Positions 11,850-54,982 of a stretch of DNA of 64,000 bases are shown here, one piece after another. Source of the stretch: Escherichia coli (GTDB taxonomy: Bacteria > Pseudomonadota > Gammaproteobacteria > Enterobacterales > Enterobacteriaceae); NCBI RefSeq assembly GCF_009931435.1, contig NZ_CP043414.1; one strand, given 5' to 3'. Each line of letters opens with the position of its first letter. The stretch's first letter is position 1. The notes beneath the pieces are model-generated. The model worked only from the letters and a program-made list of their open reading frames with translations. It searched no databases and was not told the DNA's origin. A program made the translations under genes and the position numbers.

Positions 11850-13388
11850 ATGGCGAAAGAAAAAAAACGTGGCTTTTTTTCCTGGCTGGGCTTTGGTCAA
11901 AAAGAGCAGACCCCGGAAAAAGAGACAGAAGTCCAGAACGAACAACCGGTTGTAGAAGAAATCGTTCCGGCGCAAGAGCCTGCGAAGGCTTCTGAACAAG
12001 CCGTTGAAGAGCAGCCGCAGGCGCATACTGAAGCCGAGGCGGAAACTTTTGCTGCCGACGTTGTGGAAGTTACTGAACAGGTTGCTGAAAGTGAAAAAGC
12101 GCAGCCTGAAGCTGTTGCTGAACCGGAAGTTATTACTGAGCCGGAAACGATAGTTGAAGAAACGCCAGCGTCAGTCATTGAACCTGAAGTTACGCCAGAG
12201 CCTGTGGCTATCGAGCGTGAAGAGCTGCCGTTGCCGGAAGACGTCAAAGCCGAAGAGGTTTCGCCAGAAGAGTGGCAGGCCGAAGCGGAAACCGTAGAGA
12301 TTGTCGAAGCGGCGGAAGAAGAAGCGGCTAAAGACGAAATCACCGACGAAGAGCTGGAAGCACAGGCGCTGGCTGCCGAAGCGGCAGAAGAGGCGGTGAT
12401 GGTGGTTCCTCCGGCAGAAGAAGAGCAGCCGGTGGAAGAAATCGCTCAGGAGCAGGAAAAACCGACCAAAGAAGGTTTCTTCGCGCGCCTGAAACGCAGC
12501 CTGTTAAAAACCAAAGAAAACCTCGGTTCCGGATTTATCAGCCTGTTCCGCGGTAAAAAAATCGACGATGATCTGTTTGAAGAATTGGAAGAGCAATTGC
12601 TCATCGCCGATGTGGGCGTGGAAACCACGCGTAAAATTATCACCAATCTAACAGAAGGTGCGACCCGCAAGCAGCTTCGTGATGCCGAGGCGCTCTATGG
12701 CCTATTGAAAGAAGAGATGGGTGAGATTCTGGCGAAAGTCGATGAACCGCTGAACGTTGAAGGTAAAACGCCGTTCGTGATCCTGATGGTGGGCGTCAAC
12801 GGTGTGGGTAAAACCACGACGATCGGTAAGCTGGCGCGTCAGTTTGAGCAGCAGGGTAAATCAGTGATGCTGGCGGCGGGCGATACTTTCCGTGCAGCAG
12901 CGGTTGAACAGCTTCAGGTCTGGGGTCAGCGTAATAATATTCCGGTGATTGCCCAGCATACCGGTGCGGATTCCGCTTCTGTTATCTTCGACGCCATTCA
13001 GGCCGCTAAAGCGCGTAACATCGACGTTCTGATTGCCGATACCGCCGGACGCCTGCAGAACAAATCGCACTTGATGGAAGAGTTGAAGAAAATCGTCCGC
13101 GTGATGAAGAAACTCGACGTTGAAGCTCCGCATGAAGTTATGCTGACTATCGACGCCAGTACCGGGCAGAATGCAGTAAGCCAGGCCAAACTGTTCCACG
13201 AAGCCGTTGGCTTAACCGGCATCACGCTAACGAAACTGGACGGCACGGCGAAAGGCGGGGTAATTTTCTCGGTGGCTGACCAGTTTGGTATCCCTATCCG
13301 CTACATTGGTGTCGGCGAACGTATTGAGGATTTGCGTCCGTTTAAGGCGGACGACTTTATAGAGGCACTTTTTGCCCGAGAGGATTAA
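11850..13388 (+). CDS. ftsY: signal recognition particle receptor FtsY
   Basis: 512-aa ORF: acidic low-complexity A domain followed by NG GTPase domain (GVNGVGKTTTIGKLA, DTAGR, TKLDG). Confidence 0.95.
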   Translation: MAKEKKRGFFSWLGFGQKEQTPEKETEVQNEQPVVEEIVPAQEPAKASEQAVEEQPQAHTEAEAETFAADVVEVTEQVAESEKAQPEAVAEPEVITEPETIVEETPASVIEPEVTPEPVAIEREELPLPEDVKAEEVSPEEWQAEAETVEIVEAAEEEAAKDEITDEELEAQALAAEAAEEAVMVVPPAEEEQPVEEIAQEQEKPTKEGFFARLKRSLLKTKENLGSGFISLFRGKKIDDDLFEELEEQLLIADVGVETTRKIITNLTEGATRKQLRDAEALYGLLKEEMGEILAKVDEPLNVEGKTPFVILMVGVNGVGKTTTIGKLARQFEQQGKSVMLAAGDTFRAAAVEQLQVWGQRNNIPVIAQHTGADSASVIFDAIQAAKARNIDVLIADTAGRLQNKSHLMEELKKIVRVMKKLDVEAPHEVMLTIDASTGQNAVSQAKLFHEAVGLTGITLTKLDGTAKGGVIFSVADQFGIPIRYIGVGERIEDLRPFKADDFIEALFARED

Positions 13389-13390
13389 CA

Positions 13391-14059
13391 ATGATTCGCT
13401 TTGAACATGTCAGCAAGGCTTATCTCGGTGGGAGACAGGCGCTGCAGGGCGTTACGTTCCATATGCAGCCGGGTGAGATGGCGTTTCTGACCGGTCATTC
13501 CGGCGCAGGGAAAAGTACCCTCCTGAAGCTGATCTGTGGGATTGAGCGGCCCAGCGCCGGGAAAATCTGGTTTAGCGGCCATGACATCACGCGTCTGAAA
13601 AACCGTGAAGTTCCGTTTCTGCGCCGCCAGATTGGCATGATTTTCCAGGATCACCATCTACTGATGGACCGTACTGTCTACGATAACGTGGCGATCCCGC
13701 TGATTATCGCCGGTGCCAGCGGTGACGATATTCGTCGTCGTGTATCGGCGGCGCTGGATAAAGTCGGGCTACTGGACAAAGCGAAGAACTTCCCTATTCA
13801 GCTTTCCGGCGGTGAACAACAGCGTGTTGGCATTGCCCGCGCGGTGGTGAACAAGCCCGCGGTACTGCTGGCGGATGAACCGACCGGTAACCTTGACGAC
13901 GCGTTGTCAGAAGGAATTCTACGTCTGTTTGAAGAATTTAACCGCGTTGGGGTAACCGTATTGATGGCAACGCACGACATCAACCTGATTTCGCGGCGTT
14001 CCTATCGCATGCTCACCCTGAGCGATGGTCACTTGCATGGAGGCGTGGGCCATGAATAA
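13391..14059 (+). CDS. ftsE: cell division ABC ATPase FtsE
   Basis: 222-aa ORF with Walker [18 protein letters not shown] signature and Walker B. Confidence 0.95.
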
Positions 14060-15110
14060 GCGCGATGCAATCAATCATATCCGGCAGTTTGGCGGGCGTC
14101 TGGATCGCTTCCGTAAATCGGTCGGCGGCTCTGGCGACGGCGGTCGTAACGCGCCAAAACGGGCGAAATCCTCGCCAAAACCGGTAAATCGCAAAACCAA
14201 CGTTTTCAACGAACAGGTGCGCTATGCCTTCCACGGCGCATTGCAGGATCTGAAAAGTAAACCGTTCGCCACGTTTTTAACGGTGATGGTTATCGCCATC
14301 TCCCTGACGCTGCCCAGCGTCTGTTATATGGTGTACAAAAACGTTAACCAGGCGGCGACGCAGTATTATCCGTCACCGCAAATCACTGTTTATCTGCAAA
14401 AAACGCTGGATGATGACGCCGCTGCGGGTGTGGTGGCACAGTTGCAGGCCGAGCAAGGCGTAGAGAAAGTAAACTATCTTTCTCGTGAAGACGCACTGGG
14501 CGAGTTCCGTAACTGGTCTGGTTTTGGTGGTGCGCTGGATATGCTGGAGGAAAACCCGCTTCCGGCAGTGGCGGTGGTAATCCCGAAACTCGATTTTCAG
14601 GGGACCGAGTCACTGAATACCTTGCGCGATCGTATCACCCAGATCAACGGCATTGACGAAGTGCGAATGGATGACAGCTGGTTTGCCCGTCTGGCGGCGT
14701 TGACCGGGCTGGTCGGGCGCGTTTCGGCAATGATCGGCGTATTGATGGTGGCGGCAGTGTTCCTCGTCATCGGTAACAGTGTGCGTCTGAGCATCTTTGC
14801 TCGCCGTGACTCCATTAACGTACAGAAACTGATTGGTGCGACAGATGGTTTCATCCTGCGCCCGTTCCTGTACGGTGGCGCATTGCTGGGATTTTCTGGC
14901 GCATTGTTGTCATTAATTTTGTCAGAGATTCTGGTACTGCGTTTGTCTTCGGCGGTTGCGGAAGTGGCACAGGTTTTCGGAACGAGGTTTGATATCAATG
15001 GCTTATCTTTCGATGAATGTCTGCTTTTGCTGCTGGTGTGTTCGATGATTGGCTGGGTGGCAGCCTGGCTTGCCACGGTACAACATTTACGCCACTTTAC
15101 GCCTGAATAA
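14052..15110 (+). CDS. ftsX: cell division permease-like protein FtsX
   Basis: ATG at 14052 ([13 protein letters not shown]...) overlaps ftsE 3' end by 8 nt; 352 aa. Confidence 0.9.
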
Positions 15111-15234
15111 TAAAAGCGTGTTATACTCTTTCCCTGCAATGGGTTCCGTAGCAGGGAAAGAGACCCCGTTGTCTCTTCCCGGTATTTCATCTCTATGTCA
15201 CATTTTGTGCGTAATTTATTCACAGCGTTGCATT

Positions 15235-15261
15235 GAACTTGTGGATAAAATCACGGTCTGA
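15235..15261 (+). promoter_or_regulatory. rpoH sigma-E-type promoter (P3-like) with embedded DnaA box
   Basis: GAACTT-16 nt-TCTGA matches the sigma-E consensus; TGTGGATAA (DnaA box) sits in the spacer. Confidence 0.65.
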
Positions 15262-15298
15262 TAAAACAGTGAATGATAACCTCGTTGCTCTTAAGCTC

Positions 15299-15313
15299 TG
15301 GCACAGTTGTTGC
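15299..15313 (+). promoter_or_regulatory. sigma-54 consensus promoter element upstream of rpoH
   Basis: TGGCAC-N5-TTGC with GG and GC exactly 12 bp apart, about 40 bp upstream of the rpoH ATG. Confidence 0.6.
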
Positions 15314-15354
15314 TACCACTGAAGCGCCAGAAGATATCGATTGAGAGGATTTGG

Positions 15355-16209
15355 ATGACTGACAAAATGCAAAGTTTAGCTTTAGCCCCAGTTGGCAACC
15401 TGGATTCCTACATCCGGGCAGCTAACGCGTGGCCGATGTTGTCGGCTGACGAGGAGCGGGCGCTGGCTGAAAAGCTGCATTACCATGGCGATCTGGAAGC
15501 AGCAAAAACGCTGATCCTGTCTCACCTGCGGTTTGTTGTTCATATTGCTCGTAATTATGCGGGCTATGGCCTGCCACAGGCGGATTTGATTCAGGAAGGT
15601 AACATCGGCCTGATGAAAGCAGTGCGCCGTTTTAACCCGGAAGTGGGTGTGCGCCTGGTCTCCTTCGCCGTTCACTGGATCAAAGCAGAGATCCACGAAT
15701 ACGTTCTGCGCAACTGGCGTATCGTCAAAGTTGCGACCACCAAAGCGCAGCGCAAACTGTTCTTCAACCTGCGTAAAACCAAGCAGCGTCTGGGCTGGTT
15801 TAATCAGGATGAAGTCGAAATGGTGGCCCGTGAACTGGGCGTAACCAGCAAAGACGTACGTGAGATGGAATCGCGTATGGCGGCACAGGACATGACCTTT
15901 GACCTGTCTTCCGATGACGATTCCGACAGCCAGCCGATGGCTCCGGTGCTTTATCTGCAGGATAAATCGTCCAACTTTGCCGACGGCATTGAAGATGATA
16001 ACTGGGAAGAGCAGGCGGCAAACCGTCTGACCGACGCGATGCAGGGCCTGGATGAGCGTAGCCAGGACATTATCCGCGCACGCTGGTTGGACGAAGACAA
16101 CAAGTCCACGTTGCAGGAACTGGCTGACCGTTACGGTGTTTCCGCTGAGCGTGTGCGCCAGCTGGAAAAGAACGCGATGAAAAAACTTCGCGCTGCTATT
16201 GAAGCGTAA
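15355..16209 (+). CDS. rpoH: heat-shock sigma factor sigma-32 (RpoH)
   Basis: ATG at 15355 gives the 284-aa [12 protein letters not shown]... protein; sigma-70-family regions 2 and 4. Confidence 0.95.
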
Positions 16210-20675: not shown

Positions 20676-21949
20676 AACCGATGCATATTGCAATGGCGCT
20701 GCTCTCTGCCGCCATGTTCTTTGTTCTCGCGGGCGTCTTTATGGGTGTGCAACTGGAGCTGGACGGCACCAAACTGGTGGTCGACACGGCTTCAGACATC
20801 CGATGGCAGTGGGTGTTTATTGGCACTGCGGTGGTCTTTTTCTTCCAGCTTGTGCGACCTGCGTTTCAGAAAGGATTGAAAAGCGTTTCCGGGCCGAAGT
20901 TTATTCTGCCCGCGATTGATGGCTCCACGGTGAAGCAAAAGCTGTTCCTCGTCGCACTGTTGGTGCTTGCGGTGGCGTGGCCGTTTATGGTGTCGCGCGG
21001 GACGGTGGATATCGCCACCCTGACCATGATCTACATTATCCTCGGCCTCGGGCTGAACGTGGTGGTGGGGCTGTCTGGCTTACTGGTACTGGGTTACGGT
21101 GGTTTTTACGCCATCGGCGCTTACACCTTTGCCTTGCTCAATCACTATTACGGTCTTGGCTTCTGGACCTGTTTGCCGATTGCCGGGTTGATGGCGGCGG
21201 CGGCGGGCTTCCTGCTCGGCTTCCCGGTGTTGCGTTTACGTGGCGACTATCTGGCGATCGTTACTCTCGGTTTCGGCGAAATTGTGCGCATATTGCTGCT
21301 CAATAACACGGAAATCACCGGCGGTCCGAACGGAATCAGTCAGATCCCGAAACCGACACTCTTCGGACTCGAGTTCAGTCGCACCGCCCGCGAAGGCGGC
21401 TGGGATACGTTCAGCAATTTCTTTGGCCTGAAATACGACCCGTCCGATCGCGTCATCTTCCTCTACCTGGTGGCGTTACTGTTGGTGGTGTTAAGCCTGT
21501 TTGTCATTAACCGCTTACTGCGAATGCCGCTGGGCCGCGCGTGGGAAGCGTTGCGTGAAGATGAAATCGCTTGTCGTTCGCTGGGCTTAAGCCCGCGTCG
21601 TATCAAGCTGACTGCCTTTACCATCAGCGCTGCGTTTGCCGGTTTTGCCGGAACGCTGTTCGCGGCGCGTCAGGGATTTGTCAGCCCGGAATCTTTCACC
21701 TTTGCCGAATCGGCGTTTGTGCTGGCGATAGTGGTGCTCGGTGGTATGGGTTCGCAATTTGCGGTGATTCTGGCGGCAATTTTGCTGGTGGTGTCGCGAG
21801 AGTTGATGCGTGATTTCAACGAATACAGCATGTTAATGCTCGGTGGTTTGATGGTGCTGATGATGATCTGGCGTCCGCAGGGCTTGCTGCCCATGACGCG
21901 CCCGCAACTCAAGCTGAAAAACGGCGCAGCGAAAGGAGAGCAGGCATGA
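20672..21949 (+). CDS. livM: branched-chain amino acid ABC permease LivM
   Basis: 425-aa polytopic ORF; start overlaps livH stop. Confidence 0.95.
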
Positions 21950-44719: not shown

Positions 44720-46152
44720 TGCAGGTTTTACATGTATGTTCAGAGATGTTCCCGCTGCTTAAAACCGGCGGTCTGGCTGATGTTATTGGGGCATTACCCG
44801 CAGCACAAATCGCAGACGGCGTTGACGCTCGCGTACTGTTGCCTGCATTTCCCGATATTCGCCGTGGCGTAACCGATGCGCAGGTGGTATCTCGCCGTGA
44901 TACCTTCGCAGGGCATATCACGCTGTTGTTCGGCCATTACAACGGGGTTGGCATTTACCTGATTGACGCGCCGCATCTCTATGATCGTCCGGGAAGCCCG
45001 TATCACGATACCAACTTATTTGCCTACACTGACAACGTATTGCGTTTTGCGCTTCTTGGGTGGGTTGGGGCAGAAATGGCCAGCGGGCTTGACCCATTCT
45101 GGCGCCCTGATGTGGTGCATGCGCACGACTGGCATGCGGGCCTTGCGCCTGCGTATCTGGCGGCGCGCGGGCGTCCGGCGAAGTCGGTGTTTACTGTGCA
45201 CAACCTGGCCTATCAAGGCATGTTTTATGCACATCACATGAATGACATCCAATTGCCATGGTCATTCTTTAATATTCATGGGCTGGAATTCAACGGACAA
45301 ATCTCTTTCCTGAAGGCTGGTCTGTACTATGCCGATCATATTACGGCGGTCAGCCCGACCTACGCTCGCGAGATCACCGAACCGCAGTTTGCCTACGGTA
45401 TGGAAGGTCTGTTGCAACAGCGTCACCGTGAAGGGCGTCTTTCCGGCGTACTAAACGGCGTGGATGAAAAAATCTGGAGTCCAGAGACGGACTTACTGTT
45501 GGCCTCGCGTTACACCCGCGATACGTTGGAAGATAAAGCGGAGAATAAGCGCCAGTTACAAATCGCAATGGGGCTTAAGGTTGACGATAAAGTGCCGCTT
45601 TTTGCAGTGGTGAGCCGTCTGACCAGCCAGAAAGGTCTCGACCTGGTGCTGGAAGCCTTACCAGGCCTTCTGGAGCAGGGCGGACAGCTGGCGCTACTCG
45701 GCGCGGGTGATCCGGTGTTGCAGGAAGGTTTCCTTGCCGCGGCCGCGGAATATCCCGGACAAGTGGGCGTTCAGATTGGCTATCACGAAGCATTTTCGCA
45801 TCGCATTATGGGCGGCGCGGACGTCATTCTGGTGCCCAGCCGTTTTGAACCGTGCGGCTTAACGCAACTTTATGGATTGAAGTACGGTACGCTGCCGTTA
45901 GTGCGGCGCACCGGTGGGCTTGCTGATACGGTTTCTGACTGTTCTCTTGAGAACCTTGCAGATGGCGTCGCCAGTGGGTTTGTCTTTGAAGATAGTAATG
46001 CCTGGTCGCTGTTACGGGCTATTCGACGTGCTTTTGTACTGTGGTCCCGTCCTTCACTGTGGCGGTTTGTGCAACGTCAGGCTATGGCAATGGATTTTAG
46101 CTGGCAGGTCGCGGCGAAGTCGTACCGTGAGCTTTACTATCGCTTGAAATAG
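44719..46152 (+). CDS. glgA: glycogen synthase GlgA
   Basis: 477 aa; N-terminal KTGGLADV motif; start overlaps glgC stop (TAATG). Confidence 0.95.

Positions 46153-54139: not shown

Positions 54140-54982
<843 letters not shown>

Follow-up and report, generated by a model that had tools for sequence, protein, structure and literature searches.

The rpoH control region lies in a gene order of ftsY-ftsE-ftsX-rpoH-livJ, read from the ORF list of the window (the whole 64,000-nt stretch of Escherichia coli DNA analysed here), with all of these genes on the + strand. A 311-nt segment, 15090-15400, was found in 5,425 of 5,426 complete E. coli genomes, each time between ftsX and rpoH, and rpoH is annotated at the matching locus in 5,425 E. 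coli genomes. Compared to K-12 MG1655, the segment differs at four positions (15225-15227 and 15354), and the -35 and -10 elements, their spacer, both DnaA boxes and the sigma-54 element are base-identical. The ftsX-rpoH-livJ synteny and the near-identity to K-12 establish the region as the ortholog of the K-12 rpoH control region. The features discussed below are collected in Table 1.

Table 1 Features of the ftsX-rpoH interval, numbered from the first letter of the window
Feature	Position	Strand	Basis and remarks
ftsX CDS	14052..15110	+	ORF list and annotation of K-12 and other E. coli; stop 15108-15110
Extended -10-like element TGTTATACT	15119..15127	+	Sequence reading; surrounding block conserved in 18/27 columns, three genera
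Two overlapping inverted repeats	15126..15180	+	Repeat search; 15126-15142/15146-15162 and 15155-15164/15171-15180
Conserved upstream block ending in second DnaA-type box TTATTCACA	15195..15224	+	Box at 15216-15224, matches TTWTNCACA
Sigma-E promoter rpoH P3	15235..15261	+	-35 GAACTT 15235-15240, 16-nt spacer, -10 TCTGA 15257-15261
Consensus DnaA box TTATCCACA (TGTGGATAA on +)	15240..15248	-	Perfect match; in P3 spacer, one base shared with -35
CRP-like TGTGG-ATAAAA-TCACG	15240..15255	+	8/10 to TGTGA-N6-TCACA; overlaps DnaA box
Sigma-54 promoter rpoH P6, 17-mer CTGGCACAGTTGTTGCT	15298..15314	+	-24 GG 15300-15301, -12 GC 15312-15313
Predicted P6 transcription start	15325	+	C, 30 nt before ATG, K-12 3,600,813; Bonocora rule (motif centre + 19)
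Shine-Dalgarno region GAGAGGA	15343..15349	+	Sequence reading; SD-to-ATG block conserved in 17/18 columns, three genera
rpoH CDS	15355..16209	+	ORF list; 284 aa plus stop; ATG 15355

The triplet at 15225-15227 varies among strains: it reads GCG in the window, AAC in strain AREA_487 and, in K-12, AGC, which creates a HindIII site there. Two nearly invariant blocks flank it, and the stretch to which it belongs is the one that varies most between genera, with 2/8 columns conserved. Position 15354, the base before the rpoH ATG, is G in the window and A in K-12 and eight other aligned E. coli, and this G is the sole difference from the best-matching complete genomes (99.7%). In the predicted thermosensor fold of the rpoH mRNA, the G would make the structure ~0.4-0.5 kcal/mol less stable and leave the start codon slightly more open, a modelled effect that is marginal. 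Seven E. coli sequences with identities down to 95.6% all retain the -24/-12 element, the two hexamers of the sigma-E promoter and the pair of DnaA boxes. The most divergent E. coli sampled (L083, strain DCE7) carries a 9-bp tandem duplication, TTGCTACCA, beginning at the -12 element (equivalent to 15310-15318 of the window), which leaves the N5 of the -24/-12 spacing intact and moves the predicted P6 start 9 nt farther from the ATG.

An earlier note, made from the letters of the sequence, had described GAACTT-N16-TCTGA as a sigma-E-type promoter; its coordinates are right, and the assignment fits both the literature on P3 and the conservation data given here. The two halves conform to the RpoE-like (ECF02) pattern of GGAACTT at -35 and TCnnA at -10, about 16 nt apart. 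Within the window the bare pattern occurs once (0.62 expected), and across Escherichia, Citrobacter and Enterobacter 26 of the 29 columns of the P3 block are conserved. A wider sample of 80 rpoH loci, from Enterobacterales to Betaproteobacteria, was fetched with the RpoH protein as query and is thereby free of bias toward promoter motifs; 77 of these loci were counted. A sense-strand match of at least 9/10 to GAACTT-N15-17-TCTnA within 300 nt upstream of rpoH was present at 33 of these 77 Gamma- and Betaproteobacterial loci, as compared to 2/77 on the antisense strand and 0/77 in a farther-upstream region. A sigma-E promoter is thus conserved upstream of orthologous rpoH genes, and the link from sigma-E to sigma-32 is ancient.

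This recurrence agrees with in vitro work in which rpoHP3 of E. coli is transcribed by Bordetella SigE, as is the promoter of fam, the rpoH homologue of Bordetella (PMC3490749). rpoHP3 itself is the promoter routinely used to report sigma-E activity and to serve as a sigma-E-dependent control in vitro (PMC3326320; PMC3490749). The sigma-E/AlgU-type rpoH promoters of other Proteobacteria, such as that of Bordetella bronchiseptica fam (PMC3490749), have the same GGAACTT-N16-TCTnA at 45-160 nt upstream and share the sigma-E to sigma-32 cascade with E. coli. In contrast to E. coli, these other loci are without DnaA boxes or a sigma-54 element, and many have a CIRCE-like palindrome over the -10. 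No difference was detected between the window and K-12 in P3 or its DnaA boxes (-35, spacer, -10 and both boxes).

The DnaA box that had been placed inside the sigma-E spacer is a perfect 9/9 match at 15240-15248, with the amendment that one of its bases is also the final T of the -35 and that a second box lies nearby. Both boxes fit the DnaA patterns (TTATCCACA / TTWTNCACA) and both are conserved in the three genera; two of the seven TTWTNCACA matches in the window are found here, 16 bp apart. The block that ends in the second box is identical in 28 of 30 columns in Escherichia, Citrobacter and Enterobacter and has a mean conservation of 0.96 across 63 metagenomic variants. DnaA is reported to bind and repress rpoH (Wang & Kaguni 1989, as cited in PMC8203912). 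The CRP-like pattern on its own is not above chance, with 17 matches in the window against 23.8 expected. Titles cited in PMC3661553 and PMC3562002 refer to a catabolite-sensitive promoter of rpoH and to its control by CRP and CytR, and the sequence at 15240-15255 may be the site behind this control.

The sigma-54 element was also found exactly as first described. Direct reading gives TGGCAC at 15299-15304, N5 and TTGC at 15310-15313, ending 41 nt before the ATG (the note had put it at about 40 bp), with 10/10 consensus positions and the GG and GC ten bases apart. Allowing at most one mismatch, the window contains 8 matches to the sigma-54 pattern, near the 7.2 expected, of which the rpoH site is the only one with no mismatch. 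By bare consensus at the scale of the window, neither the sigma-E nor the sigma-54 motif is remarkable. In the matrix scan that had been proposed alongside these readings, with weights derived from the other 134 ChIP-seq sites of Bonocora et al. (PMC4591121) and none from rpoH, the rpoH 17-mer came first in the window at 18.24 bits, ~4 bits above the next site, and would be third if this held-out score were ranked among the 135 sites. An equal score was found anywhere on either strand in 18 of 300 simulated 64-kb windows (~6%). If only the sense strand of the 250 nt in front of any one gene is considered, we infer a probability on the order of 1e-4 for a site this good. Position and conservation put both the sigma-E and the sigma-54 elements well beyond chance.

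The same site has been bound, scored and named in published work. Site OS36 of Bonocora et al. 2015 (PMC4591121), detected by ChIP-seq at rpoH, is the identical 17-mer. Its occupancy, at a FAT of 47, is sixth of 135 sites and its PSSM score of 12.987 is second, behind hypA, which bears out the earlier description of the element as unusually close to consensus; it is flagged as "experimentally confirmed in EcoCyc", and transcription is predicted to begin 30 nt ahead of the ATG (PMC4591121). The refuting condition set in the earlier note, mapped starts showing none about 12 bp past the GC, is thus addressed by published work. The 17-mer, its flanks and its distance from the ATG are the same in K-12 and the window, since the K-12 differences at 15225-15227 and 15354 fall outside the element. 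A gSELEX peak of the RpoN holoenzyme lies in the rpoH-ftsX spacer (Shimada et al., PMC8743547), and EcoCyc names promoters rpoHp1-p6. An rpoH template has also served as the activity control for holoenzymes with various sigma factors, the E-sigma-54 reactions containing deltaHTH-PspF and ATP, in a study by a group working with the materials of the P6 authors. For the E. coli rpoH sigma-54 promoter, Samuels et al. cite Janaszak et al. 2007 (Microbiology 153:111), and for conservation of the rpoH region Ramirez-Santos et al. 2001; Schaefer et al. cite Pallen 1999 (Mol Microbiol 31:393) under the title "RpoN-dependent transcription of rpoH". The position of the P6 start rests on such secondary citations.

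In Salmonella, the homologous site TGGCACGGTTGTTGCTCG is bound by sigma-54 in ChIP-chip experiments (Samuels et al. 2013). The Salmonella Typhimurium element (STM3568), TGGCACGGTTGTTGC, occupies the same position upstream of rpoH, and its core is also found among the metagenomic variants described below. It differs from the E. coli element by a G for A at the equivalent of spacer position 15305 and in its downstream flank, and its sigma-54-dependent expression fell below threshold.

Conservation of the sigma-54 element was followed at two scales. In the alignment of Escherichia, Citrobacter and Enterobacter, the proportion of identical columns is 90% in the sigma-E/DnaA/CRP block, 93% in the upstream block with the second DnaA box, 76% in the sigma-54 17-mer and 16% in the 25 nt after it, which also hold many indels; the differences within the 17-mer are confined to positions that sigma-54 tolerates. 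A metagenome scan, anchored on the 20-mer GAACTTGTGGATAAAATCAC and not on the sigma-54 element, returned 65 distinct enterobacterial sequences, in 63 of which the -24/-12 element is offset from GAACTT, the sigma-E -35, by exactly 63 nt. Across the metagenomic sequences, 40 to 62 nt separate the element from the ATG. In the 63 sequences, which are not phylogenetically independent and whose selection by best matrix match slightly favours core conservation, T15299, G15300, G15301, C15302 and T15310-C15313 are invariant, and variation is limited to C/T at 15298, 15304 and 15314 and to the spacer. The sigma-54 core, TGGC and TTGC, is accordingly conserved at the orthologous position. The TGGCAC of E. 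coli is the minority form (11/63), with TGGCAT in most relatives. In the broad rpoH sample the element was found in Enterobacteriaceae only (Citrobacter, Enterobacter), apart from one match in a Bordetella-labelled MAG.

With high confidence, we read the interval as the canonical rpoH control region of E. coli with its multiple promoters: P3 is read by sigma-E, DnaA acts as a repressor, and P6 is an activator-dependent sigma-54 promoter. The expectation in the earlier note that alternative-sigma promoters would be stacked on rpoH holds against both the published P3 and P6 and the conservation data, and published work on the identical sequence is what, together with conservation, supports this interpretation. 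What the analysis itself shows is that the elements are present and match K-12 exactly, and how strong and how conserved their motifs are. Binding by sigma-54, sigma-E and DnaA, as well as in vitro transcription, is taken from the literature, and we infer that the elements behave alike in the strain of the window and in K-12. Under this interpretation, rpoH, as the gene for sigma-32, would be read from P3 by sigma-E RNA polymerase, which would couple the production of sigma-32 to envelope stress and extreme heat. The two DnaA boxes, one of them within the P3 spacer, would allow DnaA to repress the proximal promoters. At P6, the sigma-54 holoenzyme would sit as a stable closed complex and start ~30 nt before the ATG only after remodelling by an ATP-hydrolysing (AAA+) enhancer-binding protein.

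For an upstream activating sequence (UAS), five published bEBP and IHF motifs were scanned over 15100-15300. For NtrC, GlrR, PspF and IHF, no match upstream of P6 in this interval was better than random. A 12/16 match to the published FhlA UAS consensus, CATTTTGTGCGTAATT, occurs at 15201-15216, inside the 93%-conserved block and ~110-125 nt upstream of the predicted P6 start; ~1% of random segments reach this score, a figure uncorrected for the five motifs tried. The K-12 regions that truly depend on FhlA (hycA-hypA, fdhF and hydN) reach at most 10/16 to the same consensus and so match it worse than rpoH does, which means that the rpoH match cannot be calibrated, and FhlA was dropped as a lead.

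The alternative that survives best accepts the sigma-54 site as genuine and assigns it a mainly repressive role, in which an activator-less closed complex on 15298-15314 would gate transcripts from P1 and P3-P5, with P6 firing rare or incidental. The site shows very high occupancy with no detectable transcription, and the authors of the ChIP-seq study consider most bound RNAP:sigma-54 to be inactive (PMC4591121); a general repressive role has been proposed for sigma-54 sites with a consensus -12 C (PMC4551910; PMC8743547). The activator of P6, along with its UAS and signal, is entered as "NK" in the table of a Salmonella review. A promiscuous activator raised Salmonella rpoH expression only 1.7-fold, and loss of rpoN did not bring a Salmonella rpoH reporter below its wild-type level (Samuels et al. 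2013), a result that the authors nonetheless explain by masking from sigma-70 promoters. The site also lies downstream of every other rpoH promoter element, and all other transcripts must therefore cross it. We take the approximate positions of P1, P4 and P5 to be upstream of the sigma-54 site.

The fixed 63-nt offset to the sigma-E -35, set beside the 40-62 nt drift to the ATG, fits a constraint toward the upstream promoters and not toward the P6 leader. The same offset would be equally, and more simply, explained by indel-intolerant P4/P5 and CRP elements in 15262-15297, and EcoCyc lists P6 as an experimentally confirmed promoter. We consider a mainly repressive role unlikely; if true, it would make the site a roadblock at which sigma-54 availability sets the ceiling of rpoH transcription. 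The more general choice, between a poised roadblock and a true promoter that has a further activator or condition, is put forward just as tentatively; for the latter, the weak and uncalibrated FhlA-like match is the sole lead.

A second alternative places GAACTT-N16-TCTGA within an overlapping sigma-70 promoter, with TTGAAC as its -35 and a weak -10, and denies sigma-E a part. TTGAAC at 15233-15238 does resemble a sigma-70 -35, but isolated rpoHP3 is transcribed in vitro by E-sigma-E and by the Bordetella SigE holoenzyme (PMC3490749), and GGAACTT-N16-TCTnA is kept in species without the flanking sigma-70-like bases. A generic scan for sigma-70 promoters found no site at this position, although it also missed published sigma-70 promoters. 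The two readings are in any case non-exclusive, overlapping promoters being the published picture, and we regard a sigma-70 promoter in place of sigma-E as very improbable. That the motifs are functionless chance matches to consensus, with rpoH driven by sigma-70 promoters only, is scarcely credible. The near-expected pattern counts (8 vs 7.2; 1 vs 0.62) and the ~6% of simulated 64-kb windows with an equally scoring sigma-54 site speak for this view, which is already contradicted by conservation and binding data, namely invariant TGGC/TTGC cores adjoining a poorly conserved flank in 63 sequences, a sigma-E architecture that recurs upstream of rpoH in two proteobacterial classes, and ChIP-seq, gSELEX and in vitro transcription on the identical sequence.

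P3, P6 and the DnaA boxes of rpoH, in our preferred reading as the canonical control region, are already known database entries and textbook features. What is added here is small: an invariant sigma-54 core, its constant 63-nt register, a leader of variable length and the confinement of the element to Enterobacteriaceae. These comparative data slightly sharpen an old question: what enhancer-binding protein, responding to what signal, turns P6 on, or is the holoenzyme bound there a brake? Because real alternative-sigma promoters were recognised here from sequence alone, the locus is useful as a positive control.

Further upstream, the generic sigma-70 and terminator scan of 15050-15400 returned no terminator and a single weak promoter site, at 15341-15368, across the start codon; the sigma-70 output was set aside, as it did not recover the published sigma-70 promoters. 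The extended -10-like element after ftsX probably belongs to the distal promoter P1, from which transcripts would begin some 220 nt ahead of the ATG. Directly after the ftsX stop, the two overlapping inverted repeats are mutually exclusive, with 17-nt arms that are 88% and 10-nt arms that are 90% complementary. The first stem, TTCCCTGC...GCAGGGAA, is kept in Citrobacter and Enterobacter with a variable loop. As no T-run follows, the repeats are not a canonical terminator, and they may lie within the P1 leader.

Many non-enteric Gamma- and Betaproteobacteria have a palindrome, TTAGCACTC-N9-GAGTGCTAA, over a sigma-E-type -10 upstream of rpoH (loci L029, L037, L050, L055, L057, L059, L060, L062, L063, L071 and L076). 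It lies ~20-70 nt upstream of the gene (for example, L076 1437-1463), and none is found in E. coli. We take this to be the operator consensus of HrcA, known as CIRCE, in which case HrcA would control rpoH; CIRCE elements upstream of rpoH have probably been reported before. The match in the Bordetella-labelled MAG falls in one of these palindromes. At L076 1438-1452, 48 nt upstream of rpoH, it is a perfect TGGCAC-N5-TTGC that scores 16.2 bits, and it was rejected as a convergent sigma-54 promoter: it is most likely a coincidence, created by a CIRCE-like left arm with an A to G change and a TTGC in the 9-nt spacer.

Elsewhere in the window, the FtsY ORF at 11850-13388 encodes 512 aa. We take K-12 FtsY to be 497 aa, the difference lying apparently in the acidic, repetitive N-terminal domain. 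Other matches to the sigma-54 matrix occur on the + strand at 45215-45231, 54753-54769 and 21770-21786. Of their sequences, AAGGCATGTTTTATGCA (13.0 bits) is identical to the intragenic glgA site IS43 of Bonocora et al. (FAT 49), and CTGGCGTGGTGTATGCA (14.4 bits) and CTGGCGGCAATTTTGCT (13.8 bits) are absent from the published high-stringency list.
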